Virus record (IMG/VR): IMGVR_UViG_3300025120_010645
Coordinates: 2,385 to 66,384 of that record
Length of the DNA stretch: 64,000 nucleotides
Strand: one strand, 5' to 3'
Source of the DNA: a virus
The translations under genes and the position numbers were made by a program. The number at the start of each line of letters is the position of its first letter. Positions within the stretch are counted from its first letter, which is position 1. The notes under the pieces were generated by a model, which saw only the letters and a list, made by a program, of their open reading frames with translations, ran no database searches and was not told the DNA's origin. Positions 25,607 through 64,000 of the stretch are shown one piece after another.

Positions 25607-26353
25607 ATGATTACATCTTTATTACAAGGGGGGTTAGGTAACCAAATGTTTCAAATATCAGTTGCGGTTGCAACCGCAAAAAGAATAGGTGTTGATTATG
25701 GATTTGATTTTAACTCATGTCATACACCAGGACAAGGAAACCCGTCTAACCAATATACAGAAACATTATTTAAAAATATAAAAAATAACCAAGTAAAGGG
25801 TATAACGATGAGGCATCATGAATCATCATTTAAGTACGTACCAATCCCATTAAAAGATAATACCATGCTAGTAGGTTTTTATCAAAATGAAAAATACTTT
25901 AAGGATTATGTTCATGAGATAAAAAACTTATTTAACATTCAACCAACTAAACTAGAAAAACACACGGACGGAACAACCGCAATACACGTAAGGCGTGGTG
26001 ATTTTTTAAAACACCCTAATTATCACCCAACATGTACTATTGAATATTATAAAAAAGCTATGAAAATAATAGGTAAAGGTGATTTTATATTTGTCTCAGA
26101 CGACATAGGATGGTGTAAAGACAATTTTAAGGGTGATAACATTAGATATTCAGACTTAACCAACGAAATTGATGACATGTCTTTAATTTGTTCTTGCGAT
26201 AACGCAATAATTTCAAACAGCACTTTCAGTTGGTGGGGAGCATATCTTAATAAAAATAAAAATAAAAAAATAATTGCACCTAAAAATTGGTTTGGACCCG
26301 AAGGACCTAAAGAACAGAACGATATAACACCAGAGTCTTGGATTAAAATTTAA
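25607..26353 (+). CDS. GT11 alpha-1,2-fucosyl/colitosyl-transferase-like
   Basis: GGLGNQMFQ, HVRRGD, VSDD..WC, NSTFSWWGAYL. Confidence 0.93.
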   Translation: MITSLLQGGLGNQMFQISVAVATAKRIGVDYGFDFNSCHTPGQGNPSNQYTETLFKNIKNNQVKGITMRHHESSFKYVPIPLKDNTMLVGFYQNEKYFKDYVHEIKNLFNIQPTKLEKHTDGTTAIHVRRGDFLKHPNYHPTCTIEYYKKAMKIIGKGDFIFVSDDIGWCKDNFKGDNIRYSDLTNEIDDMSLICSCDNAIISNSTFSWWGAYLNKNKNKKIIAPKNWFGPEGPKEQNDITPESWIKI

Positions 26354-35165: not shown

Positions 35166-36164
35166 ATGAAAAAGAAGTTTTTAATTACAGGTATTACAGG
35201 GTTCGCAGGACCTAATTTAGCTAAATTACTATTAGCCGAAGGTCACGAAGTTCACGGCGTAATCAGATGTCCTAACGGGAGACAAGCTGACTTATTAGAT
35301 ATATTAACACTAGAAGAATATAAAGCAATTGATTTTAAAGTTTGTGACCTTAAACACTTTATCGGTGTCCAAAAGTTGCTAGTTGAAGGTAAGTACGACG
35401 GCGTGTTTCATTTAGCAGCACAATCACACCCACCAACTAGTTTTAACGACCCAATATTAACATGGGAAGAAAACGTTACCGCAACTATGAATATTATCAC
35501 TTGCCTTGAAAAGTCTGATACGAAATTAATGTTCTGTTCCACCTCAGAGGTTTACGGTGACACATGCAAGGACAATGGAATGTTATCAATTGACACTCCA
35601 CTAGCACCAAGCAACCCTTACGGAGCCTCTAAAGCAGCTATTGATTTATATTTACAAGAGAGAATGAATAACGGATTTATTAAAGGGTTTATAACTAGAG
35701 CATTTTCACACACAGGACCAAGAAGAGGATTTAACTTCTCCATCTCGTCAGACGCATATCAAATCGCTAAAATGATGATTGGTAAACAAGAAAAGGTGTT
35801 AGCTATTGGTAATTTACAAACTGAAAGAGTCGTGATTGACGTTAGAGATTGCGTTAATGCATACTACTTGTTAATGATGACCGACGATTCAAATGGAGGT
35901 GTATTTAATGTTTGTGGAGAAGACGTTCACAAGATGCAGTACTTCACAGATAAACTCATAGAAGCGTCTGGAATTCCTTATAATGAGATTGAACAAAAAA
36001 TTAATCCAGCATTTTACAGAGACATAGATATCCAAATCCAAATTGGAGACTCTAAGGAACTGAAAGATATTACTGAATGGGAGCCAACGATAACAATTGA
36101 AAAGACTATGGAAGATTTATTATCCTATTGGGTTAATAAATTAAACGCGAGTTCAAAATTATAA
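35166..36164 (+). CDS. GDP-mannose dehydratase / Rmd-like extended SDR
   Basis: ITGITGFAG, HLAAQSH, STSEVYG, PYGASK, RAFSHTGP, GNL..R...DVRD.V.AY. Closer in pattern to GDP-4-keto-6-deoxymannose reductase (Rmd) than the canonical Gmd at 38880. Confidence 0.8.
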   Translation: MKKKFLITGITGFAGPNLAKLLLAEGHEVHGVIRCPNGRQADLLDILTLEEYKAIDFKVCDLKHFIGVQKLLVEGKYDGVFHLAAQSHPPTSFNDPILTWEENVTATMNIITCLEKSDTKLMFCSTSEVYGDTCKDNGMLSIDTPLAPSNPYGASKAAIDLYLQERMNNGFIKGFITRAFSHTGPRRGFNFSISSDAYQIAKMMIGKQEKVLAIGNLQTERVVIDVRDCVNAYYLLMMTDDSNGGVFNVCGEDVHKMQYFTDKLIEASGIPYNEIEQKINPAFYRDIDIQIQIGDSKELKDITEWEPTITIEKTMEDLLSYWVNKLNASSKL

Positions 36165-36167
36165 TAT

Positions 36168-37055
36168 ATGCCGATAGAACTGTATGGGTCAAGTGATAGA
36201 ATAGGCGGGAACATCATTGATATGATTGCCCAACTTACCTACGCACATAAGACCTCTAACTCTATACACTATAATAGGGAGAGATTAAGAGTTTACAATA
36301 CTTATAATCAAAATTATAATAAAACCATATTTATGGAGATGTTATTTGACCTTATAGATGTACACAACATATTGACTACTGAAGAGACTACGGATTGGAC
36401 GGACTTAGCCGCTCCGTCACACTTTGAAGTGTTAACAAAAACGTTATTAACGTTAGATATGGATATTATTTCGTACTTCAAAGGTAATAATATATACACC
36501 GATAAAATGAGAGCTTTGTTCTTAGAAAAAGGTAAAGCTAGAGGTTACGACATTCCTTTTAACCCTGAAAAAACTATACTTGTTCATCTTAGAATGGAAG
36601 ACGTAAAAGACAGAGGAGATTATGACGGGAGTGTTTGTGCTAACTATATGAGAGATAGAATTGAATCTGGAGACATACCAGGAACTGAAGTCCTAACTCC
36701 TACAGCAACCCCAGACCCATGGTGTCAAATGCAAGGACCGCTAGACGTAGACAAAGTTCAGAGACAAATTGATATTGCTATCAAAAAAAATCCTAACCAT
36801 GAAGTAATATTAATAACTAATCCAAATGAGGATACATCAAGACTACCCTATAGAGTTATTTCTAATCCCGACGAATGTTATGATTTATTCTTATTATGTA
36901 ATGCTAAGACATTAATACTATCAAGAAGCAATTTTGCGTTAGTATCATTATTCTTTGGAATAGGTGAGGAAGTATACACCCCACTTTGGGGACACTTACC
37001 ATGTTATGGACTTTATACTAAGTACGATGAATGTAAATTTAATTATTTTAAATAA
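36168..37055 (+). CDS. Fucosyltransferase-like GT-B protein (GT11-related)
   Basis: DRIGGNI, VHLRMED, DLFLL..A..LILSRSNF. Confidence 0.6.
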   Translation: MPIELYGSSDRIGGNIIDMIAQLTYAHKTSNSIHYNRERLRVYNTYNQNYNKTIFMEMLFDLIDVHNILTTEETTDWTDLAAPSHFEVLTKTLLTLDMDIISYFKGNNIYTDKMRALFLEKGKARGYDIPFNPEKTILVHLRMEDVKDRGDYDGSVCANYMRDRIESGDIPGTEVLTPTATPDPWCQMQGPLDVDKVQRQIDIAIKKNPNHEVILITNPNEDTSRLPYRVISNPDECYDLFLLCNAKTLILSRSNFALVSLFFGIGEEVYTPLWGHLPCYGLYTKYDECKFNYFK

Positions 37056-37966
37056 TGATAACAACAAACTTAACAGGAAACCTAGGAAATCACATGTGGC
37101 AATATGCTGTATGTAGGACTATCGCAGAAAAACTAGGTTACGAATGGGGAATAAACCCATCACCAAGTCATGACTATTTTAACGGTCAAAGTCAAATGAC
37201 ATTTATGAATGTAAATTTCGGAAAGGAAGTAGAGGGTATTAACAACGAATTTCATGAGAAGTGGGTAACCCATCAACATGTTGACGCAGTTAATATTACT
37301 ATGTTAAATAAATCTTTGTACGAGATTGCTGACAACAGTATTATGTTAGGTGACAAGGGAGCTAAGGGTGGTATATATCAATCAGAGGATTACCTTATTG
37401 ACAGAAAGGATGACATTAAGAAATGGTTTGAGATTAAGACTGAGTCAGCTGCTCATTATGATAAATTATTAGTTGACTACGGGGTTGTTCTTGATAAGGA
37501 TACGTGCGTCATCAACTTTAGAGGAGGTGAGTATAGGTCAATACCTAACGTTATATTAAAACCTGAATACTGGAAGAACGCAATAGAACACATGTTGGAA
37601 ATTAACCCTAATATGAAATTTGTTCTTATCACAGACGACCCACACACAGCGAATGCGTACATGCCATTTCCAATACAAACAATACACGTCGATGTAGGTT
37701 TTGATTTTTACGTAGTCAACAAAGCTAAATTTAATATTATATCAAATTCAACATTTGGGTGGTGGGCTGTGTGGTTAAATGAGGTGACAAATAAAATAAT
37801 AGCTCCGAAGTACTGGGCTAGACACAATGTTAGTGATGGCTACTGGGCAACTGGCGACGCATACACTAGAGGGTTTACCTACATGGACAGAGAGGGTAAC
37901 TTATCTGACTTCGACACCTGTAAATCTGAGGCTGAAAAATATTATAAAGAAAGAAATTTAATTTAA
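37055..37966 (+). CDS. Second GT11 alpha-1,2-fucosyltransferase-like protein
   Basis: GNLGNHMWQY, YQSE.Y, NFRGGEY, ITDD, NSTFGWW. Confidence 0.88.
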   Translation: MITTNLTGNLGNHMWQYAVCRTIAEKLGYEWGINPSPSHDYFNGQSQMTFMNVNFGKEVEGINNEFHEKWVTHQHVDAVNITMLNKSLYEIADNSIMLGDKGAKGGIYQSEDYLIDRKDDIKKWFEIKTESAAHYDKLLVDYGVVLDKDTCVINFRGGEYRSIPNVILKPEYWKNAIEHMLEINPNMKFVLITDDPHTANAYMPFPIQTIHVDVGFDFYVVNKAKFNIISNSTFGWWAVWLNEVTNKIIAPKYWARHNVSDGYWATGDAYTRGFTYMDREGNLSDFDTCKSEAEKYYKERNLI

Positions 37967-38879: not shown

Positions 38880-39875
38880 ATGAGTAAAACGGCATTAATC
38901 ACTGGTATAAACGGACAAGACGGTAGCTATTTAGCTGAACTTTTAATTGAGAAAGGTTATGAAGTTTGGGGGACTGTAAAAAGAAATTCAGTATCTGAAA
39001 CACAAACTAGTAGAATCGAACACCTACGACAAAAAAAGTTAATAAACCTAGAATACGCTGACTTAACCGACATGGCATCACTAATTAGAGTGTTAAGTAA
39101 ATTACAACCAGACGAAATATATAACCTAGCCGCACAATCTCATGTTAGAGTTAGTTTCGACCAACCAGTATACACAGCCAATGTAACAGGTATTGGGACA
39201 CTAAATCTATTAGAATCTATCAGAATGGTATCACCTAATTCAAAGGTATATCAAGCATCATCTTCAGAAATGTTTGGAAACAACATCGATAAAGACGGTT
39301 ATCAAAGAGAAACAACACCCATGACACCAGTATCACCATACGGATGCGCTAAAGTATTTTCTTATAATATTTGCAATAATTACCGTAATTCATATAATAT
39401 GAAAATATGGAACGGAATACTATTTAATCATGAATCACCTAGAAGGGGAACTAATTTTGTTACTAATAAAGTAGTAAAGGGTGCAGTAAGAATTAAATTA
39501 GGGTTACAAAATGAATTACACTTAGGTAATTTAGAAGCTACTAGAGACTGGGGACACGCTAAAGATTACTGTGAAGCAATGTGGCTTATGTTGCAAACTG
39601 ACGAACCAGGTGACTATGTATGCTCTACAGGGGTTTCACATTCTGTTAGAGATTTATGTTTTTACACATTTAAAAAATTAGGATTAAAATGGCAAGAACA
39701 TATCAAAATTGACTCAAAATTCCTAAGACCAGAAGAGTTAAAAGACTTAAAAGGTGACTCAAGTAAACTTAGAAATAAAGTAGGGTGGAAACCTAAATAT
39801 ACTTTTGAAACTATGCTTGACGAAATGGTTGAATATTGGTTAGAATATTATAAAGTTAAAAAAGAATTAATTTAA
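38880..39875 (+). CDS. gmd: GDP-mannose 4,6-dehydratase
   Basis: ALITGINGQDGSYLAE, LAAQSHVRVSF, QASSSEMFG, SPYGCAK, NHESPRRG, RDWGHAKDY. Confidence 0.97.
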   Translation: MSKTALITGINGQDGSYLAELLIEKGYEVWGTVKRNSVSETQTSRIEHLRQKKLINLEYADLTDMASLIRVLSKLQPDEIYNLAAQSHVRVSFDQPVYTANVTGIGTLNLLESIRMVSPNSKVYQASSSEMFGNNIDKDGYQRETTPMTPVSPYGCAKVFSYNICNNYRNSYNMKIWNGILFNHESPRRGTNFVTNKVVKGAVRIKLGLQNELHLGNLEATRDWGHAKDYCEAMWLMLQTDEPGDYVCSTGVSHSVRDLCFYTFKKLGLKWQEHIKIDSKFLRPEELKDLKGDSSKLRNKVGWKPKYTFETMLDEMVEYWLEYYKVKKELI

Positions 39876-54121: not shown

Positions 54122-55945
54122 TTATCTCAATTCAGCAACGTTGAATGTTGGTACACCGTCAACTTTAACATGTCCGTAGAAACGGTTGTTCACCATTTTC
54201 TTAGCATATCTTGTCATAATCCCTTTTACAGGAGCGAAGTTGAACGGGTTGTACATTGTTGGAGTAAGTTGCATTGGCACGTATGGTGCGTAGATGTAAC
54301 CAGTATCCAATAATGATTTACCTTTATGTCCAATAATCATAGAGTGTGCTGGAGCATATGGGTCTCTATAAATTTGGTATCTTCCCGAAAGAGAACCAAC
54401 TTTTTCAATACCCATGTTATATTGGTCTTGCTCTGGGTTAGCGTCAGAAACGTGGAAGTATTCTAAATCATCAAAAATAGCTGAGATTTCAGAAGATACA
54501 ACTACGAAGTTTGCACCACCTCTTAGAGTAGACTTATGAATTTGTGCAGAAATTTGGTTAACTTTAGTAATTAAAGTTTGATTCCAATCTTTTTGCGTAT
54601 AAGCATTAGATGCAGTAGAAGATTTTCTCCATCCCTGGTAATCCCATCTTGAAGCAACACCTGCAACTCTTAAATCTCTTAAGATTTCTCTATCGATTTC
54701 AGCAGCAACTTGTTCAGACAACATAGAAGTTAATTCAGCTTCAGCGTCAATGTTGTGGAATGCACTAACATCTTGCGCTAATTCTGGAGACCATGTAGCT
54801 CTTAATTTTCTTTCTTCAACAGCAACAACAACTTCATCCAATTTGAAAGAAACTTCACCAAGTTCAGTCTCTAATTCAAGAGAAGCATATTGTGTCCAAG
54901 AAATAACAAATTGATTTTCTGTATGTGCAGATTGAGTTGCATTCATTACAGCTCCGATATAACCATCATAAGTAGAAGTTGCAGCACCTTGAGCAACTGG
55001 ATGAGTCAAATCTACCTCAATAAATAAGTTACCACCAGCATCACAAATCTCACCGTATTCAACGATTCCTTTTCCGTACTTCTGAGTAACTAATCTAAAT
55101 GGTAATTCACCACCAGCAGCAACAATTTGATTAGCATCCACATCAACTAATGCATCAGTTGCACTAACCTTTAAAGAAGCTAAAAACGCTTCAGTATCCA
55201 CTTCGTTTCCGTCTGGACCAGTTAATTGTCCTTTTTGTCTAGTAGCATTTGCTGTAAATCCTTCTACTTTAACAATAACACTTCTAAGTGAACCATCAGT
55301 AGCAGTTGGAAGGTTACCAAATACAGTTGAAGAAAGTCCAGAGAATGCTCCAGCAGAGTTCAATGTTTGTAATGTCTTTGTAGGACTAGTGTACATAGTT
55401 ACAGTACCTTTTGAATTATCAAATAATCCATCATTGTAATATAAGTCATATAAAGATTTAGCTTGCATTGTAGTAGCAGCACATCCACCAGAAACATCAA
55501 CACAGTCAGGTAAAGCAACCCCGTTCTTATCAGAAAGACCAGTGTGTGCAGAATACTGAGCACCATTAGCTCCGTAAAAATCACCTGCTACACCAGCGGC
55601 GTTAACTCTGTTTGACGTTTGTGGTACGAAGTAGAACAATTTACCAATTGGCATGTTCATAGCTTGTACAGACACGATGTCATTAGCTAATAATTTTGAG
55701 AATACTCTTCTCACGATAGGAAATACTACCGTTTCAAAAGAACCTGAAGACGTAGCATCAGTTGCTTCTGTTAATAAAGAAGTCGCTTGGTTCTCAAATA
55801 ATTGAGCAACGTTTTCTTTAACGTGACCTTTAAGTCCTTCTAAGAATCCTAAAGAATCCCATTTTTGTTGAGTTTGTTCACGAATAACCTTCATGTGGTT
55901 TAATCCGATGTTCCCAACTTGTCCAGAATTTAATAAATGTGACAT
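54122..55945 (-). CDS. gp23: Major capsid protein (T4 gp23-like) with a large insertion domain
   Basis: IVRRVF..LLANDIVSVQAM..P.G..F, RKLRATWSPELAQD, IDAEAELT..LSEQVAAEIDREI, YAPYVP, TRYA. Confidence 0.95.
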   Translation of the reverse strand: MSHLLNSGQVGNIGLNHMKVIREQTQQKWDSLGFLEGLKGHVKENVAQLFENQATSLLTEATDATSSGSFETVVFPIVRRVFSKLLANDIVSVQAMNMPIGKLFYFVPQTSNRVNAAGVAGDFYGANGAQYSAHTGLSDKNGVALPDCVDVSGGCAATTMQAKSLYDLYYNDGLFDNSKGTVTMYTSPTKTLQTLNSAGAFSGLSSTVFGNLPTATDGSLRSVIVKVEGFTANATRQKGQLTGPDGNEVDTEAFLASLKVSATDALVDVDANQIVAAGGELPFRLVTQKYGKGIVEYGEICDAGGNLFIEVDLTHPVAQGAATSTYDGYIGAVMNATQSAHTENQFVISWTQYASLELETELGEVSFKLDEVVVAVEERKLRATWSPELAQDVSAFHNIDAEAELTSMLSEQVAAEIDREILRDLRVAGVASRWDYQGWRKSSTASNAYTQKDWNQTLITKVNQISAQIHKSTLRGGANFVVVSSEISAIFDDLEYFHVSDANPEQDQYNMGIEKVGSLSGRYQIYRDPYAPAHSMIIGHKGKSLLDTGYIYAPYVPMQLTPTMYNPFNFAPVKGIMTRYAKKMVNNRFYGHVKVDGVPTFNVAELR

Positions 55946-55984: not shown

Positions 55985-57316
55985 TTATTTTTTATCGACT
56001 CTCTTAATTAAGTCCATAATTCTAGAAGTTTCAGTATCAACATAAACAGTACTTTCGTTTAATTGTTTAGATGTACCAGAATTAACTTCCTTTTCAATCT
56101 TATTATTGATTGACTCGTTCATTGGTTTTCTTGAACCTAATTCACTAGCAATCGCTTTATAAAGTTTTTTCGATTCCTTAAGAGTTGAAACTTCATTATC
56201 AAATCTTTTAAAGATTCCTTCTTTTTCAGTCTTAGTTGTCGAGTGTTCCATAAATAACTTAGTTACATAAGTTAAGTTTGAGTTAAAAACCACAGTTTCT
56301 GCTAACATTGTTCTAAATTGTTTAAGAGCTTGTTTGTATTCACCATTCTTACCCTTTAATTCTTTAGCTTCAGTTAACAAAGCATTATATTTTTTAGTTG
56401 TTTCAGATACAGGTGCCGTTACATTTGGAGCTTTAACGTTGTTAGCTTTTCCACCAGCACCTTTGATATCAGTTAATGTATTAGCTACAGTACGTCCTTT
56501 TCCAACTTGTATTTTTTCTTCGATTGGCTCTTCACCTTCTTCACAAGTTTCCTTTTCAGAGATTTCTTCCTCAGTAAGTTTTTCCTCATCATCAGAATCT
56601 TCTTCTTCAGTAAGTTTTTCCTCATCATCACAATCTTCTTCCTCAGTAAGTTTTTCCTCACCTTCTTCACAGTACTCGTCTTCGTCTAAGTCAATTTCGT
56701 ACATAACTTCATCCATAACTTCGTCTTCGATTTCTGAATCAATTTCTATATCTTCTACAGAACCCTCATCGTCCATCTTAATAACAAATTCACCAGGCTC
56801 GCTAACGTTTAATTTAACTTCACCAGCTTCATCATCAACCACAACTTCGATTTCATCATCACCAGTTAACTTTTTGTAAACCGCAATAACGTCATCATCT
56901 GATGCCGTTGTCATATCCATCTCTATCTCATCATCTGATGCTACTGCATCCATTCCAGTTTCGTAGTCACCTTCAAGGTCACCACCTACGTCTGAGTTAT
57001 CGATGTCACCAACTTCGATTTCGTCTTCTTCTTCACCAGCCTCTATCTCTTCTTCTTCACCAGCTTCGTCATCACCCTCGATATCATCAAGTTCGATTTC
57101 TTCACCAGCGTCATCAGAAGCATCAGCTACTTCAGTTTCATCTTCATCAACATCTTCTTCCATGTAATCTTCTTCTATAGATTCTTTCACTAAACTTTCA
57201 ATTTCTTCTTTCGCTACCGAACGAAGTATTTCTTTTGTGTTGGCATTAAGAGCTTCTTGTATTCTTTTTGCGTCCAAGATAGCTTCTTCTAAAATTGATT
57301 TCTTTTTATCAGCCAT
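55985..57316 (-). CDS. Acidic prohead core / scaffold protein (T4 gp22-like position)
   Basis: Very Glu/Asp-rich, coiled-coil C-terminus, between protease and capsid genes; start set to ATG 57316 (MADKKKS); late motif at 57371..57378. Confidence 0.75.
   Translation of the reverse strand: MADKKKSILEEAILDAKRIQEALNANTKEILRSVAKEEIESLVKESIEEDYMEEDVDEDETEVADASDDAGEEIELDDIEGDDEAGEEEEIEAGEEEDEIEVGDIDNSDVGGDLEGDYETGMDAVASDDEIEMDMTTASDDDVIAVYKKLTGDDEIEVVVDDEAGEVKLNVSEPGEFVIKMDDEGSVEDIEIDSEIEDEVMDEVMYEIDLDEDEYCEEGEEKLTEEEDCDDEEKLTEEEDSDDEEKLTEEEISEKETCEEGEEPIEEKIQVGKGRTVANTLTDIKGAGGKANNVKAPNVTAPVSETTKKYNALLTEAKELKGKNGEYKQALKQFRTMLAETVVFNSNLTYVTKLFMEHSTTKTEKEGIFKRFDNEVSTLKESKKLYKAIASELGSRKPMNESINNKIEKEVNSGTSKQLNESTVYVDTETSRIMDLIKRVDKK
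56565..56660. repeat. Three 36-bp-period repeats encoding EEKLTEEE
   Basis: tcttcYtcagtaagtttttcctca at 56565, 56601 and 56637. Confidence 0.9.
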
Positions 57317-57417
57317 TTTTTTTAATTTTTTAAAAAATTTTATAGCGAGCATATGTATACCCACTTGTTTATAAATATGTCCTTTTTATATAAAAAGACA
57401 AGTTTTTGTATTTTTTT

Positions 57418-58116
57418 TTAATCCAATAGAAATTTATTAATTTTATCTATTAGCAAATCTTTTGATTTTTCTTTTGATTCGGTAAATGGTTTAGCTTCAG
57501 CTGCGTTCTTAAACATCCAAGAACCTGGGGTACTTGGGGACGTTACGACATCCCAACAAATTAATTCAAAGTCATCTTGAACTATGTTTTGTCCAGCAAT
57601 TTCTTTAAGAGAACCAACACCTCTAGATGACACACCAATCATAATATTATTTCTAATAAGGTTGGCAACTTCATCACCTTTAGTTGATACAATACCATAA
57701 TTAACATACCCAGGAGACATCAAAACTTCCATCTTACCCATAAGGGTTTTACCTTCCCACCAAGTCTCAGTAATATTATGTGAAATTCTATCACCAGCAA
57801 TAATAGAAGATTCTGGGTGGTCTAATTCACCAATAGCTCTTCGTTCTTTAATTAATTGTTGATAATTATTAACTTCTCTTTCTAGAATTTCTTTTGGGTA
57901 TATTCTACCATTTCTATTTTTAACTCCCCACTTTTGTAATACTACATATAATATTAATGGAGATGCGATAATTGCAGCACCTTTATCTAAACTCTTTATT
58001 TCATTAACAAATGGTTTATTTCTGGAATCATTTGGGTCAACATAACCAGCGTCACTTTCAATTAGTACACCTAACCCTTGTTGACCTGGTTTTAATATTT
58101 TTAAATCTCCTGACAT
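57418..58116 (-). CDS. gp21: Prohead protease (T4 gp21-like)
   Basis: NRNGRIYP, GELDHP, GVSSRGVGS, WDVVTSPSTPGS; late motif at 58132..58139. Confidence 0.93.
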   Translation of the reverse strand: MSGDLKILKPGQQGLGVLIESDAGYVDPNDSRNKPFVNEIKSLDKGAAIIASPLILYVVLQKWGVKNRNGRIYPKEILEREVNNYQQLIKERRAIGELDHPESSIIAGDRISHNITETWWEGKTLMGKMEVLMSPGYVNYGIVSTKGDEVANLIRNNIMIGVSSRGVGSLKEIAGQNIVQDDFELICWDVVTSPSTPGSWMFKNAAEAKPFTESKEKSKDLLIDKINKFLLD

Positions 58117-58150: not shown

Positions 58151-58179
58151 AAAAAAACCCAGAAATAAATTCTGGGTTT
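58151..58179 (-). terminator. Intrinsic terminator
   Basis: AAACCCAGAA-ATAAA-TTCTGGGTTT with an A-run on + (U-run on -). Confidence 0.8.
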
Positions 58180-58204
58180 AGTAAAAAGTATGTTTTTATT
58201 TATA

Positions 58205-58648
58205 TTATTTTTTTCTTTTTTTAAATTTAAAATATTTAAATTCTTCCAATACCTCATCAATAATTACCTCGCCAATGAACTTTAACTCTTTTTGAATACT
58301 TTTTTCTTGTAACTTAAATAATTTTTTTTGAAAGATAGTTATTTCACAATTCATAAATGATTTCTTACCATAAGATATTCCAGACTCACGCATATCAAAG
58401 TCAACAATACACCTATCAATATAAAATAAATCGGGATTTAAAGAAGATTTTAATTTCATTTTAATCTTTTTAGTTACAGCTCTTAAAATTGGCCCGTAAT
58501 TTACTTCACCACTAACTATTGATTCTCCCCAAGCTGATATATTTAGATATAATGCTTTTGGGTTCTTATTGTCTACTGTACCAGATAATACTCTATAATT
58601 TTCGTGACCTTCAGAAATTAATTGTTTACCATTTTTACTTATAATCAT
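58205..58648 (-). CDS. Hypothetical protein
   Basis: 147 aa, with its own TTGACT-N16-TATACT promoter (58666..58693) and terminator. Confidence 0.75.
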   Translation of the reverse strand: MIISKNGKQLISEGHENYRVLSGTVDNKNPKALYLNISAWGESIVSGEVNYGPILRAVTKKIKMKLKSSLNPDLFYIDRCIVDFDMRESGISYGKKSFMNCEITIFQKKLFKLQEKSIQKELKFIGEVIIDEVLEEFKYFKFKKRKK

Positions 58649-58694: not shown

Positions 58695-59036
58695 TTAATC
58701 CTTTACTTTCAATAATGCGATAAAAACCCCGAACGCTATTTGCACAACAGCCCAAACAGTAATAGCGACTGTTCTAAAGGTATTAAGCGTTGCAACATCT
58801 TTTTTAACTTCCTTAAGTGTAGCTGGACTTGCAACATCATCCATATAACGTTTCCATTTTGTAAACCCTTCAATCTCTTTTTCTATACTATCTATCTTGG
58901 TTAACTTTTGATTTATTTCGGTAAGTATTAATTGAATTTTTTCATCATTTTCATTTAACCTTTCCAACTCATTTAAAACCAACTTAGAATATTCATTCCA
59001 TCCGTTTTGAGGAATTCCTTTACTATTCTTTTCCAT
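58695..59036 (-). CDS. Coiled-coil protein with a C-terminal transmembrane anchor
   Basis: WNEYSKLVLNELERL... coiled coil, then AITVWAVVQIAFGVFIALL. Confidence 0.75.
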   Translation of the reverse strand: MEKNSKGIPQNGWNEYSKLVLNELERLNENDEKIQLILTEINQKLTKIDSIEKEIEGFTKWKRYMDDVASPATLKEVKKDVATLNTFRTVAITVWAVVQIAFGVFIALLKVKD

Positions 59037-59040
59037 TTTG

Positions 59041-59604
59041 TTATAAATTTGTAATATCTATGTGGGTACCCACCATTCTAACAGGGTTATGATTAACGTC
59101 CCACTCTATAACGCTTCCCCTAGATAGAATTTTAACAGTATGTCCATCCTTATGTTTGTATCTTGCAATACTTTTAAACTTATACTCTCCTTTGCTATCA
59201 AAATGCTTACTTATTTCTGAGTTTAACTCATTTAAGTCATCTTCATAAACTAACTTTTTATAATGTTGAAAATCAGAATTTAACTCATTATTATCAAAAC
59301 CTAAATGTTTTATTAATTCAGGACTTGAGATAAATGATTCAAAAAATAAATCAAAATTAAATTCATTACTATCTTTGTCAACCGTATAAGTTTTAAAGTT
59401 ATCAATAGATTCATTAATATTAACTAATCTATTAATAATACTTTCATTTTTTTTATCATTTATATTCCAATCCCAATAACCGTCAGTACTATAACCTAAA
59501 GTTAGTTTTAATATCTCTAACCTCTTAAACGCCTCAGTATCTCTTATACAAAGTTGGTCAACTAATTCACGTATCTTTTTTATGTTGCTGGAACTATTAA
59601 ACAT
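59041..59604 (-). CDS. Stand-alone PAS (PAS_3/PAC) domain protein
   Basis: STDGYWDWNI...SP....LGF...LVYEDD...RYKHKDGHTVKILSRG......PVRMVGTHIDIT; ends right after the DIT motif. Confidence 0.88.
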   Translation of the reverse strand: MFNSSSNIKKIRELVDQLCIRDTEAFKRLEILKLTLGYSTDGYWDWNINDKKNESIINRLVNINESIDNFKTYTVDKDSNEFNFDLFFESFISSPELIKHLGFDNNELNSDFQHYKKLVYEDDLNELNSEISKHFDSKGEYKFKSIARYKHKDGHTVKILSRGSVIEWDVNHNPVRMVGTHIDITNL

Positions 59605-59607
59605 CCT

Positions 59608-60483
59608 TTATTTTAAACTGTCTTTTAATGTGTTTAACTTTAAAATGTCAACTTCAAAACTATTGTTATTATATTTTTTATCTAATAGGTTCTCTTTAAG
59701 GTCTAATAGACTCATTTTTAAATCTACATCAGCAATCTTTAATTTACCATTAACTAAAGATAAACACTCGTTAATTGATTTCTTAAACATTACATTCTTT
59801 TTATCCTCATCTGAACTAGTCGTTAAAATACTCTTTAACAAAGATGCTTCAGACTCACTAAGAGACTTACTATATTCTTTATTAAATCTACTGACCATTA
59901 ACTTTGATAAATCTTTACTTGATAATACAGTGTCATCTAACCCTTCAACTATTTCTTTTTTATCTTCTTTATTATTTAAAATGTAATCAACTATTTTATG
60001 ATTCGTTTCCAAAATAACACTTATCGTGTTACCCATTTTTTTAGTGTTAATTAAAGTTGATATATCTTCATGTAGTTCTTTTACTGAATCATTTACATTA
60101 TAATACCCATCTAACTTAGAAGAAGGTATATCATTTAATATATTACCAATAATCTTGTTAGTTTCTGTTATCTCTTTTTTTGAAAACTTATCCATTAAAG
60201 ATAAATTTTCTTTAACAAATTCTAAAGCCTTATCTTTATCTGACTCAATCTTTGATTCTATGTTAGAGTAAATATGGTACTGAGTTTTAAGTACTTTATT
60301 TTCTTTTAGTAAGTTAATATATTTATTAAACACACCTTTTACATCATTTGATGAACTGGGCTTACTATTTTTGTTAACCCCAACTTTCTTACCACTTGAA
60401 ATTATTTCACTTAAAAAGTTAGTATATGCTGTGTTACATTTACCAAAGTTAACAACTAACTTATTTATTTTTTCATTTTTCAT
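59608..60483 (-). CDS. Hypothetical helical head-morphogenesis protein
   Basis: 291 aa, between portal and protease; late motif at 60500..60507. Confidence 0.7.
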   Translation of the reverse strand: MKNEKINKLVVNFGKCNTAYTNFLSEIISSGKKVGVNKNSKPSSSNDVKGVFNKYINLLKENKVLKTQYHIYSNIESKIESDKDKALEFVKENLSLMDKFSKKEITETNKIIGNILNDIPSSKLDGYYNVNDSVKELHEDISTLINTKKMGNTISVILETNHKIVDYILNNKEDKKEIVEGLDDTVLSSKDLSKLMVSRFNKEYSKSLSESEASLLKSILTTSSDEDKKNVMFKKSINECLSLVNGKLKIADVDLKMSLLDLKENLLDKKYNNNSFEVDILKLNTLKDSLK

Positions 60484-60528: not shown

Positions 60529-62556
60529 TTATTCATTAATCATTTTATCAATTCCACCTATCATGTCATTAATAGTTTCATTAACTCTAATACTCTTATC
60601 CACAACTTTAACCCTTTCATTAATTATTTTATCACTATCTTTTTTAACTGATTTAAGTAATTTATCAAAATAATTATCTGAATGTTTTTTTATTTTTTTC
60701 TTGTGGTTAAGTTTAGTTTCAGTTAACAAATTATTTATATTTTTAAAAGACTCCTCTGTAGCTTCTGAATCACCACCTTCATCTCCTCCAAAATCTAAAC
60801 CTTCATCATCACCGCCTTCATCACCGCCTTCATCACCGCCTTCATCACCGCCGAAGTCATCACCGCCTTCATCACTGCCGAAGTCTAAACCGCCACCGCC
60901 GAAGCCGCCGCCACCGCCGCCACCACCGCCGAAGTCATCACCACCACCTTCGTCACCGCCACCGTCATCGTCAGAAGAACCACCATTTTTAGCTGCGTCT
61001 ATATCGCCGTAAAGCCTATCCACCTCGTCAAATGTTCCAGTATGTTTAATAATATTAGATGTGTTTTCCATTTCAGCTGCTGCTGCTTTCTCAAGTCGCT
61101 GTTCAAGTAAATCTTGTTTTATTTCGTCATCAGACCATTCTAATATATCTCTTTTACCTCTAGTCATAGACATAACACCAAACCCGTTACCCGCATCAGA
61201 TGTTGCATCTTTATAAAGGGTAATCTTAGATTGCATTTGTTCAATCTTAAGCATTTGAGCTTGAGTTGATGGATTATTAAGTGTTAACGTAAAGTTATCC
61301 AATTCATCTTCCAATCCTAGTAAGAATAAATGTAAGATAGCAATCTTATTTAATTCCATAATCATGGACTGCTGTATTAAATTGATAGTTCTAGTAAATC
61401 TAATGTCCTGTAAAGCTAAATTCTTACCATCACCAAAAGCATCCTCAAATCCTAAGAAGGATTTAGGTACCCTTAAGGCTGTAAATAACTTTCTTTGTAA
61501 GTATTCTATATCTGCAATCTGGTCTAAGTTACTAGCTCCAGGTAAAGTATCTATAGGGTTAGGAGCGTCTTCACTTCTAACAGGTATAAAGAAATCCTGG
61601 TCATTAGCCATTTGATTGTACTGTAAGTCAACCTGACCTGTCTTAGGGTCTGTTATAGGCGTTCTTTTAAATCTATTGGCTATTTCATCTACGTAAGACG
61701 GCACATCCTCATCATCAATATTACCTACGAAAATCTTATAAACCCTTCTCTCTGGCGCCCTAGTAACTCTATATATTAACATAGCATCTTCAGAAAGAAT
61801 TAATTGTTTCCAGATTCTTCTAGCTTTTTCTAATACAGAAGTTCCATAAGGTAACCTCCTGTCATCACCAAGTAATCTAAAATGAGCAATTTGCCAAGAA
61901 TTAAACTCGTAGTCCTTACCTCTCCATATAAATTTAACCTTAGAATCTTTTTCATCTTTAATATCAGAAGTACTCATAACCCTACCAAAAACATCACCCT
62001 CTCTTCTTTCTATTTCAAAGTTAGGTAACTGCCTAGCACCCATAATTCCAGCATTATCATCAATGTTAAGAAATACAAAATTATCACCATATTTACATGT
62101 ATTTCTGGTCCACATTGGTAATGATGTATGAATATCTAATCTATTAAAGAATAAATCTTCTAGTATTGTTTTAACCCTCTTTGAATTAGAAAATATATTT
62201 AAAACCCTACCCTTATCATTAACGGTAGTAGATTCCTCTCTCATTATATCTAACGTGGCAGCTATTTCTGGGTAATGTTCCATACTCTCAAAATCAGAGT
62301 AAGAACCTATACGAGTTGTTTCATAATGAATTGTTTTTTGAAACATCTCATTATCAACCTTTCTCCATAAACCGCTAACATATTTATTTTGCTGCGCTTG
62401 TAATTTAGCAGTCTCAAACTCTGATTTATCAGTGGTTTTAAACATTGATTCATTATCTATAGAGTATCTATTAGCTTGATTAATTGAAGACTGAACACCA
62501 GTAGGTCCAAATATATTATTTAATTTTTGGAATACTGTTAATTTTCTTTTAGCCAT
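60529..62556 (-). CDS. gp20: Portal protein (T4 gp20-like) with Gly/Asp-rich C-terminal tract
   Basis: YGTSVLE.ARRIWKQL.L.EDAMLIYRVTRAPERRVYKI.VGN, DFFIPVR, IDTLPG, DIEY...KLFTALRVP. Confidence 0.95.
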   Translation of the reverse strand: MAKRKLTVFQKLNNIFGPTGVQSSINQANRYSIDNESMFKTTDKSEFETAKLQAQQNKYVSGLWRKVDNEMFQKTIHYETTRIGSYSDFESMEHYPEIAATLDIMREESTTVNDKGRVLNIFSNSKRVKTILEDLFFNRLDIHTSLPMWTRNTCKYGDNFVFLNIDDNAGIMGARQLPNFEIERREGDVFGRVMSTSDIKDEKDSKVKFIWRGKDYEFNSWQIAHFRLLGDDRRLPYGTSVLEKARRIWKQLILSEDAMLIYRVTRAPERRVYKIFVGNIDDEDVPSYVDEIANRFKRTPITDPKTGQVDLQYNQMANDQDFFIPVRSEDAPNPIDTLPGASNLDQIADIEYLQRKLFTALRVPKSFLGFEDAFGDGKNLALQDIRFTRTINLIQQSMIMELNKIAILHLFLLGLEDELDNFTLTLNNPSTQAQMLKIEQMQSKITLYKDATSDAGNGFGVMSMTRGKRDILEWSDDEIKQDLLEQRLEKAAAAEMENTSNIIKHTGTFDEVDRLYGDIDAAKNGGSSDDDGGGDEGGGDDFGGGGGGGGGFGGGGLDFGSDEGGDDFGGDEGGDEGGDEGGDDEGLDFGGDEGGDSEATEESFKNINNLLTETKLNHKKKIKKHSDNYFDKLLKSVKKDSDKIINERVKVVDKSIRVNETINDMIGGIDKMINE
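60771..60972. repeat. GC-rich low-complexity repeat (atcaccgccttc units; GGDE/GGGG codons)
   Basis: 12-bp units in tandem around 60808..60843 and ccg/cca triplet runs, inside the portal gene. Confidence 0.85.
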
Positions 62557-62854: not shown

Positions 62855-64000
62855 TTATTTTGAACCACTTAATAACCATAAATAATCACCATTAGGGTCT
62901 TGCATATTTTTAGAAACCCCTTTTGAAAATTTTGGCTTAGGTAACGAATTTTTACCTCTCATATTTTTAGGCACAAATCCGCTATTATTGTTATTATTTT
63001 CAGAAGAACCACCAACTTGCCAACTAGACAGTATAGCTTTTGTTTTCTCCTTCATTTTATGTAATTTTTTAAATGAAAACTCTAAAACATATATTGGCAT
63101 TGCGAGTGACATTAATAAATCATCGTGATACCCCTCCATGTGGTCAGCTCTTCCATTTTTATATATAAAAGTTTTCATCTCAGAAACCATTCTTCTAGAT
63201 TTAATATTTATAGTTCTATTTCTGATAGACTCTTCAAGTCTTTGAAGCATTACTACCCTAACACCATTAGCATTAAACCCAGGTATCTTTTCATCTCTAC
63301 TATACATATCTAACTGACTCTTTTTACTATTAAGAATCCTACCTCTAGGCTCATCATAATATAAATATTTATAATCTAGTTCAATTAACTTAAGCACTGT
63401 AGAAACACCCATACCACCAGCAACATCAACTACAGTAAGAGCTTTATACATATTACCATACTCATAAACATACTCAGCAAGTATGTCTGGCTGAACTTTA
63501 CCTTGATATTCCATAACTTGAGTCATTGTAGCAACGTCAACTATAACTATCGTAGACGAATCCTTACCGTCACCCCTACTAACATCAACTCCCATTATGT
63601 ATTCATGTCCCTTCTCTGGCTTTTCCCAAATCCAAAACTCTTTTTCTCTGCCATCCACCCACTTAGGCTCTTCTACTTTATTATCTTCGTAGTGTTTTAT
63701 ATCTATATCAGCTATAACATTACCACCAGAACCTAAAAAAGAAACGTCTAATTCTTGAGCTATTTTTTTAGTGTTATTATTAAGTGTGGCACACATATTT
63801 TCATACCAACTACTCGTGGGCTTATAACCTTCTTTTATTTTTTTAGAATAATTGTCAATTATAAATTCAGTTTCTTTTATCTTTTCAAGTATATCACCCT
63901 TATCATCTTTTTTAATCCAAAAAAGGTCTTTATTGCCATACTCATCTTTAATGTACCTAGGGTCTTCATACCACCTCATCTCTATTACATTATAATTATT
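62855..64000 (-). CDS. gp17: Terminase large subunit, C-terminal part (T4 gp17-like); 5' end outside the window
   Basis: AQELDVSFLGSG, YIMGVDVSRGDG.DSST, HDDLLMS; the frame stays open from 63979 to the edge. Confidence 0.93.
   Translation of the reverse strand, partial: NNYNVIEMRWYEDPRYIKDEYGNKDLFWIKKDDKGDILEKIKETEFIIDNYSKKIKEGYKPTSSWYENMCATLNNNTKKIAQELDVSFLGSGGNVIADIDIKHYEDNKVEEPKWVDGREKEFWIWEKPEKGHEYIMGVDVSRGDGKDSSTIVIVDVATMTQVMEYQGKVQPDILAEYVYEYGNMYKALTVVDVAGGMGVSTVLKLIELDYKYLYYDEPRGRILNSKKSQLDMYSRDEKIPGFNANGVRVVMLQRLEESIRNRTINIKSRRMVSEMKTFIYKNGRADHMEGYHDDLLMSLAMPIYVLEFSFKKLHKMKEKTKAILSSWQVGGSSENNNNNSGFVPKNMRGKNSLPKPKFSKGVSKNMQDPNGDYLWLLSGSK

Follow-up and report, generated by a model that had tools for sequence, protein, structure and literature searches.

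Few sensors of host state are known to be encoded by phages, and most of those described are transcription factors that belong to temperate phages. VqmA-Phi of vibriophage VP882 is reportedly a factor of this kind, joining a PAS domain to a helix-turn-helix domain in a temperate, plasmid-like phage and letting a small-molecule cue time lysis. XhlA (PF10779) belongs to the PBSX lysis cassette of Bacillus, and T of phage T4 pairs with RI and RIII, the latter a cytoplasmic antiholin. Anchoring of the T4 prohead to the membrane depends on gp20, gp40 and YidC. PMC9958956 describes T4 prohead initiation as membrane-bound and in need of gp40. Here we describe a two-gene locus on the minus strand of a 64,000-nucleotide (nt) stretch of viral DNA (the window; positions 2,385 to 66,384 of IMG/VR record IMGVR_UViG_3300025120_010645), in which gene A encodes a stand-alone PAS protein of 187 amino acids (aa) and gene B a 113-aa tail-anchored coiled-coil membrane protein, here called CCTM. 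The architecture of this module, the co-occurrence of its parts, the pattern of selection on them, the exchange of its sensor head and its accessory status are matters of direct observation. The best explanation overall, which we offer tentatively, is a membrane-tethered sensor that would control a late membrane event such as lysis timing.

The pair comprises the following elements (window coordinates; evidence in brackets).

59041-59604, minus strand: gene A, 187-aa stand-alone PAS protein (open reading frame (ORF), PAS_3 match, AlphaFold2, Foldseek, homologues, ratio of nonsynonymous to synonymous substitution rates (dN/dS))
59500-59595, minus strand: N-terminal helix of gene A, residues 4-35, putative adaptor element with the motif NIKKIRELVDQLCIRD... 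(AlphaFold2, dN/dS, hidden Markov model (HMM))
59326-59460, minus strand: insert restricted to one clade, residues 49-93, separating A-beta from the remainder of the PAS domain (alignment, predicted local distance difference test (pLDDT), dN/dS)
59407-59418, minus strand: INES motif, residues 63-66, candidate prohead-protease site or scaffold-like motif (motif conservation)
59062-59325, minus strand: PAS_3 core, residues 94-181 (Pfam, pLDDT 69-89, dN/dS 0.05-0.28)
58695-59036, minus strand: gene B, CCTM, 113-aa tail-anchored coiled-coil membrane protein (ORF, homologues, model, dN/dS)
58950-59009, minus strand: most conserved CCTM motif, QNGWNEYSKLVLNELERLNE, residues 10-29 (34-sequence alignment)
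58710-58772, minus strand: putative C-terminal membrane helix, T89-L109, with mid-helix Gln99 (hydrophobic, flanked by R88 and K110)

An earlier reading of this locus from the letters alone (the sequence-only reading) had proposed that the two genes form a unit, and a gene-neighbourhood survey bore this out, adjacency being kept across clades, gene orders and contexts. Loci recovered with different seeds overlap, and counts are therefore given per seed set or on unique sequences; ORFs in the loci of relatives are simple longest-ORF calls. CCTM adjoins the PAS gene in 33 of 34 distinct PAS-seeded viral loci, the remaining locus being cut by a contig end. Many CCTM-seeded loci carry no A1-type PAS, and it is in these that the constant element of the partnership becomes visible. 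An HMM of the N-terminal helix, iterated twice, found 146 matches among 7,252 ORFs in 195 loci; 144 of these lie within 600 nt of a CCTM gene on the same strand, and the other two are the contig-end case. Among 85 unique CCTM sequences, 71 have an HMM-detected partner (median gap 2 nt), which is a PAS-family protein in 29 cases (23 upstream, 6 downstream), long and divergent in 14 and short in 28. The constant partner of CCTM is thus the N-terminal helix, not the PAS domain, and the two genes very probably form a module with this helix as its conserved partner element.

What follows the helix is exchanged. In all 11 other-clade loci inspected, the gene upstream of CCTM carries the motif xLxKL(R/K)xLVxxLxxRD, after which comes either a divergent PAS-like domain or only 30-50 further residues. 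Eight long partners searched with Pfam gave PAS_9 at 23.6-26.7 bits in four (cut-off 27), a weak PAS_4 match in one and nothing PAS-like in three. Thirteen short, PAS-less partners of 72-86 aa align over the helix with the PAS family (hhalign probability 91%, E 1e-6), and they would be reduced forms of helix plus PAS. The short partners (e.g. L162:3845-4078) also carry cysteines at largely conserved positions (EKxC ... KCYExMC), which may be a metal or redox site replacing the PAS head. Two contigs have tandem PAS genes before CCTM.

The genomic surroundings vary as well. Distant members, with PAS proteins of 23-31% identity, have the pair not beside head genes but among genes for baseplate hub, DNA polymerase, topoisomerase and helicase, with CCTM either after or before the PAS gene. 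Further contexts are between portal and protease, between protease and scaffold (L201), after the major capsid gene beside a head-tail adaptor, and after a tail-fibre gene.

Gene A itself was described in the sequence-only reading as an N-terminal helix and a single PAS domain without output, and that description holds. PAS_3 (PF08447; residues 94-181, E 1.1e-13, 51.7 bits against a cut-off of 25.6) is the sole Pfam match in the 187-aa protein, which ends in ...HIDITNL six residues further on; Pfam finds no output domain fused to the PAS, of the kind that marks a multidomain sensor. An AlphaFold2 model built on a 30-sequence alignment (mean pLDDT 68.5) has the antiparallel beta-sheet with helices and the N-cap helix of a PAS fold, with helices at residues 4-35, 84-92 (short), 95-100, 115-118 and 121-136 and strands at 42-47, 143-150, 156-168 and 174-183. 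Block means of pLDDT in the PAS core are 69-89 from residue 91, and the loop 51-80 lies below 50; B-beta does not appear as a strand because region 84-92 is modelled as a helix. Foldseek against the PDB returned 37 matches at E<=1e-3, all of them PAS or LOV domains, the first being the PAS of a sensory-box kinase (3mr0). The only cysteine of gene A is C19 in the N-terminal helix, and the absence of any from the PAS core excludes LOV-type (adduct) photochemistry. An invariant His134 on the long F-alpha-like helix is a lead, and only that, to a ligand or cofactor.

Selection and conservation together establish gene A as a functional gene whose N-terminal helix is its most constrained part. At E<=1e-3 it has 58 homologues; 55 of them measure 135-198 aa, and the other three (P0046, P0057 and P0058; 269-305 aa) look like fragments of multi-PAS proteins. 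Across 30 aligned sequences reaching down to 32% identity, frames are intact and 12 residues are invariant. Pairwise dN/dS among five close relatives is 0.10-0.33, and by region it rises from 0.00-0.09 in residues 1-48 through 0.05-0.28 in the PAS core to 0.28-0.50 in the insert, the least constrained part. These values answer the proposal that the PAS gene is a decaying, functionless fragment of a captured kinase gene. The missing output domain and the long, poorly conserved, disordered insert would fit such decay, but purifying selection on the whole gene and on the core, intact and partly invariant homologues and conserved synteny with CCTM refute it as far as sequence data can, and we regard it as extremely improbable.

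CCTM is a smaller and still more conserved protein. Its AlphaFold2 model (pLDDT 80.6) consists of a helix at residues 10-68, a kink at S70-P71 and a second helix at 71-112. Only four residues follow the hydrophobic stretch T89-L109, a tail-anchored topology; every one of the 34 aligned members ends in such a hydrophobic segment, in which Q99 is almost invariant. Insertion into the membrane and an orientation with the coiled coil in the cytoplasm are what we infer from the sequence. G12, W13, E15, V20, E23, L24 and L27 lie within QNGWNEYSKLVLxELERLN and are invariant across 34 sequences from all clades; outside this motif, W61 is invariant too. The window CCTM has no Pfam domain and no PHROG match better than E 1e-3; none of its 293 homologues has a Pfam domain, and 246 related stretches were found in IMG/VR. 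Among 271 candidates there was no fused form longer than 198 aa, which is weak evidence.

Neither family was found in a cultured phage when the window PAS and five CCTM variants were searched by tblastn against 50,697 phage records: the single CCTM match at the E<=1 threshold (E 0.1) falls on an exonuclease gene, and a distant PAS (L036) retrieved only three unrelated PAS-bearing phage records. Among papers on PAS domains in phages, on jumbo or T4-like phages and on lysis timing, none concerned, by its title or abstract opening, a stand-alone PAS and membrane-protein pair in T4-like phages; those on XhlA and holins dealt with lysis in general. The top 30 ESM Atlas clusters for the CCTM family are 100% viral, and CCTM occurs in only 2 of ~185,579 prokaryote species genomes (one genome per species). 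The first of these (L200) is a 32-kb contig in a Prochlorococcus single-cell assembly, in which a 138-aa helix plus PAS-like gene shares 4 nt with CCTM; head genes are absent from this contig, which is read as phage because of its 31% G+C and a nucleotidyltransferase-like ORF. The second contig (L201), 5.8 kb long and assigned by binning to Candidatus Woesebacteria, has genes for protease, scaffold and capsid, and encodes a 79-aa helix protein and CCTM between protease and scaffold. The two are possible host leads at most, or mis-binned phage contigs.

A cellular counterpart of the helix plus PAS unit is seen in P0046, a 305-aa ORF on an 8.97-kb metagenome contig with the order helix-PAS-PAS followed by a HisKA-type H-box. 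Its first helix and PAS module is 43-48% identical to the phage stand-alone PAS proteins over 145-150 residues, helix included, and the unit thus resembles the N-terminus of cellular sensor kinases. This homologue lends some substance to the suggestion, also made in the sequence-only reading, that gene A is a dominant-negative decoy, its helix and PAS heterodimerising with the N-terminal PAS of a host sensor histidine kinase and blocking or hijacking its signalling; PAS domains commonly dimerise through N-cap helices. The idea is weakened by the fact that the constant partner element is the helix and not the PAS. Gene A was never found apart from CCTM, 28 of the 85 CCTM partners have lost the PAS and kept the helix, the helix and not the PAS core is most constrained, and 43-48% identity does not speak of recent capture. 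We consider a decoy quite unlikely.

The position of the pair in the window bears on two further explanations. The source record is a 66.4-kb virus contig (CheckV completeness 20%); complete relatives of this phage group measure 288, 353 and 362 kb, and the contig is therefore a fragment of a T4-like jumbo phage. Its nearest cultured capsid proteins, such as those of Microcystis phage Mel-JY01 and the Flavobacterium 'immuto' phages, are ~40% identical over ~55-60% of their length. By Pfam and PHROGs the minus strand holds a T4-type head module.

62855-63979, minus strand: large terminase, cut by the window end (Pfam/PHROGs)
Between large terminase and portal, minus strand: 87-aa ORF (ORF list)
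60529-62556, minus strand: portal (Portal_T4, E 1.8e-72)
59608-60483, minus strand: p291, function unassigned, upstream flank of a variable slot (in 75 of 76 loci seeded with the protease and showing both it and the portal, the exception being L181)
58205-58648, minus strand: p147, function unassigned, downstream flank of the slot (in all of these loci)
58197-58204, minus strand: T4 late-promoter word TATAAATA, between p147 and the protease gene (word scan)
58155-58179, minus strand: terminator-like hairpin, 10-bp stem, 3' of p147 and before the protease gene (1 site against 1.1 expected in shuffles)
57418-58116, minus strand: prohead protease (Peptidase_S77, E 8e-28)
55985-57364, minus strand: scaffold (head module member)
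56051-56122, minus strand: scaffold C-terminal motifs MNES (residues 415-418) and LNES (435-438) (motif comparison with the PAS insert)
54122-55945, minus strand: major capsid protein (Gp23, E 3.8e-74)

The junctions from p291 to the PAS gene (TAA-agg-ATG, 3 nt) and from there to CCTM (TAA-caaa-ATG, 4 nt) are as tight as the sequence-only reading had reported and suggest co-transcription of the pair with p291 and the portal gene. The hairpin could mark the end of a portal-p291-PAS-CCTM-p147 transcription unit; it is suggestive only, through its intergenic position, and not enriched over shuffles. A sigma-70-like scan likewise did not rise above shuffles (34 against 29.8). The upstream neighbour had been taken for a late head gene, for which only its position speaks; p291 has no Pfam, PHROG or ESM Atlas match, and p147 none in Pfam or PHROGs.

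To see what this place in the genome holds independently of the pair, 80 loci were collected from the protease as seed, 76 of which show both portal and protease. The interval between p291 and p147 contains PAS plus CCTM in 21 of them, CCTM without an A1-type PAS in 28 (alone or behind a 72-86-aa helix protein) and no CCTM in 27. These last 27 slots comprise 10 that are empty, 12 with an alternative pair, 3 with a single protein bearing an N-terminal membrane helix, 1 with a cupin pair and 1 unclear case. In the alternative pair a 98-103-aa protein with an N-terminal membrane helix and coiled coil precedes a 129-131-aa PAS-like protein; the 131-aa form matches PAS_3 below the cut-off (E 4.9e-5, 24.0 bits) and aligns with the PAS family, helix included, at an hhalign probability of 55% (E 1.2e-4). 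The cupin pair has a 97-aa coiled-coil protein with N-terminal membrane helix, then a 166-aa protein matching Cupin_2 (30.1 bits) and Cupin_7 (28.3 bits) above their cut-offs. Two slots (L167:3759-4415 and L189:3831-4415) hold a single protein of 194-218 aa with an N-terminal membrane helix, a globular part and no Pfam match, which may be a fused anchor and sensor. A complete 288-kb relative with direct terminal repeats (G005, the record of L151) carries a cassette of a 98-aa N-terminal-membrane-helix protein and a 129-aa PAS-like protein, and has no CCTM anywhere in its genome.

The slot therefore collects one architecture, a single-pass membrane coiled-coil protein with a small ligand-binding-type domain. 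The N-terminally anchored protein of the alternative cassette is not detectably related to CCTM. A capsid-internal role for the hydrophobic end of CCTM was set aside in favour of a membrane helix, a reading kept because a single hydrophobic helix, at the N-terminus, is found in the alternative cassettes too. Since the slot may be empty or filled with other cassettes, the pair is accessory cargo of the head operon rather than a head component: the sequence-only reading was right to place it within the head-assembly module, but with 27 of 76 loci lacking CCTM it does not belong to the head machinery.

Cargo of this kind could serve another membrane role, such as superinfection exclusion, counter-defence or manipulation of host division or respiration, with the sensor head tuning activity. 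Hypervariable cassette swapping is typical of conflict loci, and the slot behaves as such a cargo site; the family appears virus-only, both matches in species genomes being phage-like contigs; and the PAS gene has been duplicated in tandem. A few CCTM members bear automatic Joint Genome Institute (JGI) names such as 'DivIVA', and weak DivIC, ZapB and DivIVA matches occur among the generic coiled-coil matches of CCTM. Such matches are, however, generic, spread over 172 families and far below cut-offs, and a place in the late structural operon with 3-4-nt junctions speaks against early exclusion or takeover. We hold this explanation to be unlikely.

The insert in the PAS domain introduces a different possibility. 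As the sequence-only reading had noted, about 45 residues separate WDWNI from SPEL; the net insert is ~38 aa relative to 20 aligned homologues that do without it, and it is present in 10 of the 30 aligned family members, the remaining 20 proteins being ~149 aa long. It is predicted to be disordered and varies in length and sequence, except for (I/L/M)(N/T)ES(I/V/T) and FNFDLFF(E/D)SF. The (I/L/M)(N/T)ES motif is kept in all ten insert-bearing proteins, and no equivalent of it was seen in the aligned PAS proteins without insert. Complete scaffold C-termini of the same clade keep RKP(M/I/L)NESI and QLNEST, with LSES and INET as single variants; the sister clade has L-x-E-G at the corresponding place in its scaffold. 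In the capsid protein, S(L/I)L(T/N)E(A/S)T is conserved at the end of the N-terminal propeptide, and some relatives have LLNES there. The T4 prohead protease follows the rule L/I-X-E. S77-family prohead proteases are described in PMC5694885 as cutting after Glu in x-X-E motifs. The earlier likening of KNES/INES in the insert to MNES/LNES in the scaffold stands insofar as the strings are present and conserved in the clade, but not as a matter of raw number: [LIMV]NES occurs four times in the 20,064 aa of 70 crude window ORFs (twice in the C-terminus of the scaffold, once within the PAS insert and once in an unrelated ORF of 193 aa) against a roughly estimated two by chance, which is not significant alone, and the weight of the motif rests on its conservation. 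Conserved within a predicted-disordered loop and matching scaffold and capsid motifs, it looks like a protease site or a scaffold mimic, which is a lead and not a finding.

From this follows the idea of a head-assembly tether, in which CCTM would fasten the nascent prohead (its portal or core) to the inner membrane, a task for which T4 relies on gp20, gp40 and YidC, with gene A as the bridge, and in the insert clade the prohead protease would cut that bridge at (I/L/M)NE|S to free the finished prohead. The module lies in head clusters at three positions in different lineages, dN/dS of CCTM (0.007-0.07) is at the level of portal (0.04-0.10) and protease (0.04), and the insert motif is identical to the scaffold C-terminal motifs and to the predicted capsid propeptide cleavage site, in keeping with the x-X-E preference just cited. 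T4 proheads, according to PMC9958956, assemble on the membrane and are released after maturation cleavages. Against a tether stand the 10 empty slots and the 16 with other cassettes among 76, the complete 288-kb relative without CCTM, occurrences of the module away from head genes, the restriction of insert and motif to 10 of 30 aligned PAS proteins, and a window count of [LIMV]NES that is not significant alone. Nor is there similarity to T4 head proteins: gp40, gp67 and gp68 were tried as CCTM homologues and rejected (hhalign probability 0.13%, 0.10% and 0.07%), as was gp68 as a homologue of p147 (BLASTP E 19). A tether is in our judgement unlikely.

The explanation we prefer, a membrane-tethered sensor, treats the pair as a mobile, accessory unit of two genes in uncultured T4-like jumbo phages. 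CCTM would be a tail-anchored inner-membrane protein with a coiled coil of ~85 residues facing the cytoplasm, and gene A a cytoplasmic protein whose conserved N-terminal helix would dock onto that coiled coil. The C-terminal part of gene A would be an exchangeable head, which in the window is a PAS domain and in other lineages a PAS-like domain of divergent sequence or a short stub containing Cys. Some cue in the cytoplasm would be bound or sensed by the PAS head, and the helix would pass this on as a change in the oligomeric state or availability of CCTM. Neither protein has an enzymatic or DNA-binding domain, and the output must therefore be a protein-protein or membrane event; it would come late and concern most likely the timing of lysis, by a logic like that of holin and antiholin or of XhlA. 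Both sensing by the PAS head and this output are putative.

Lysis timing is favoured by the accessory status of the pair, by the topology of CCTM, by weak holin and XhlA leads and by analogy with the T4 holin and antiholin. The sequence-only reading had called the partner holin- or XhlA-like, and the coiled coil with C-terminal membrane helix agrees with it in topology; no homology to XhlA or holins was found. Leads to lysis proteins come from phrog_689 'holin', which matches 5 of 34 CCTM members (best E 1.3e-4, weak), from phrog_1193 'hemolysin', which matches 1 of 34, and from the nearest named ESM Atlas cluster, a 'putative holin' with XhlA Pfam in 22% of its members (score 0.92). These leads are weak and non-independent.

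A number of observations weigh against this output. Holins are typically diverse, and the constraint on CCTM, which matches that on portal and protease, is unusual in a holin. The XhlA Pfam model found no match at E<=10 in a six-frame search of the contig, in which two candidates were scored, and XhlA is absent from the Pfam matches of five members at E<=0.1 and from the top 25 of 172 families matched by 34 members at E<=1; those 172 families are generic coiled-coil families, none near its cut-off. Foldseek of the CCTM model against BFVD gave three matches, none at E<=0.001. PF00959 lysozyme, the one endolysin family searched, in five records, is absent from the phage's own contig; in two relatives it lies far from the pair, ~27-35 kb away in G003 and inside a 2,133-aa ORF in G004. 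CCTM has p291 and PAS on one side and p147 on the other, with no holin or endolysin adjacent, and, as far as this one endolysin family tells, is not located in a lysis cassette as XhlA is. Three of the contexts of the pair are head-morphogenesis clusters, which fit a head-linked role equally well. Twelve of the 85 unique CCTM sequences have adequate flanks and no HMM-detected partner (two more have flanks too short); five of the twelve are false negatives by eye or other searches (L068, L074, L094, L165 and L190), leaving ~7 that are apparently truly solitary. Late expression is read from position only: the late-promoter word TATAAATA shows no enrichment, with 27 occurrences against 21 expected, and does not occur upstream of the pair. 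Physical binding of gene A to CCTM is, in the same way, something we infer; complex prediction of PAS with CCTM residues 1-90 scored 0.00 in both runs, made without controls, and counts neither way. Taken with the evidence in its favour, lysis timing is a possible output, somewhat short of a probable one.

The insert motif and the sensor head could also be joined in a single scheme, a protease-gated checkpoint that would make an event at the membrane depend on both capsid maturation and a cytoplasmic signal. The helix of gene A would hold CCTM inactive or prohead-bound; in the insert clade the activated prohead protease would cut the loop at (I/L/M)NE|S, as in the scaffold and capsid proteins, splitting the helix from the PAS head, and the freed CCTM would trigger lysis or release the prohead from the membrane. 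Exchangeable heads (PAS, PAS-like, cupin) would add metabolic or redox input. Such a checkpoint is very unlikely; were it true, membrane anchor, adaptor helix and swappable sensor would make up a new class of phage timing device.

The surrounding genes have features of their own. Near its C-terminus the portal (60529-62556) contains a long low-complexity tract rich in Gly and Asp (GGGGGGGGFGGGG..., DEGGD repeats), and the scaffold (55985-57364) has acidic EEKLTEEE-type repeats. The capsid gene (54122-55945) shows dS of 0.16-0.22 among close relatives, against 0.4-1.2 for neighbour genes, and a higher dN/dS of 0.27-0.40, which may reflect recombination and mosaicism or a variable insertion domain. 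A relative's portal ORF of 1,734 aa (L010:899-6103) contains intein splicing domains (135 bits, three stretches) and an HNH_3 match below the cut-off (21.7 bits against 24.8), and another's protease ORF of 606 aa (L023:7342-9162) has an intein-like match below its cut-off (31.9 bits against 35.8); head genes of this phage group therefore host inteins. Portal ORFs are also over-long in L069-L071, where they measure at least 1,032 aa and extend beyond the start of the locus; the protease ORFs of L070 and L071 have 614 aa. On the plus strand, within a long run of ORFs of 250-330 aa with unassigned function, lie two paralogous pairs, 35166-36164 with 38880-39875 and 25607-26353 with 37055-37966, of 28% identity (E 5e-41 and 2e-18).

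The module adds two new protein families, CCTM and the adaptor helix, together with a testable hypothesis of their binding. The sensor head changes from lineage to lineage (PAS, divergent PAS, cupin or none) and the adaptor helix and membrane anchor do not, a pattern that points to a modular decision device, tethered to the membrane and at work late in infection. Should this device set lysis time or prohead release according to host physiology, it would matter for burst size and timing in these uncultured aquatic phages.

Set against known systems, gene A most resembles short bacterial PAS and LOV proteins, represented by SBW25-LOV (7yx0, Foldseek rank 15, E 4.8e-4) and the kinase PAS 3mr0 (rank 1, E 1.9e-7), in having an N-cap helix and a single PAS core with no fused effector, so that output would go through protein-protein contacts. 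It differs from SBW25-LOV in lacking a core cysteine and in its predicted-disordered insert of 38-45 aa between A-beta and B-beta, and from short bacterial PAS and LOV proteins generally in belonging to a lytic-type T4-like jumbo phage and in standing always beside a dedicated membrane-anchored partner. With VqmA-Phi it shares, by description only, the character of a phage-borne PAS-type sensor thought to time a late decision; unlike VqmA-Phi it has no DNA-binding domain, and its genetic partner is a membrane protein. In T4 terms the pair, between portal (gp20) and protease (gp21), occupies the position of genes 67 and 68, but CCTM has no sequence similarity to gp40, gp67 or gp68, the gp40 sequence has no hydrophobic membrane helix, and the pair is accessory in relatives. 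Gene A could act like the cytoplasmic antiholin RIII, again a likeness by description only. CCTM is like XhlA in being small, with an N-terminal coiled coil, cytoplasmic in the orientation proposed here, and one C-terminal membrane helix; unlike XhlA and holin pairs, it shows high conservation and is encoded within clusters of head genes in T4-like phages of the Gram-negative type.

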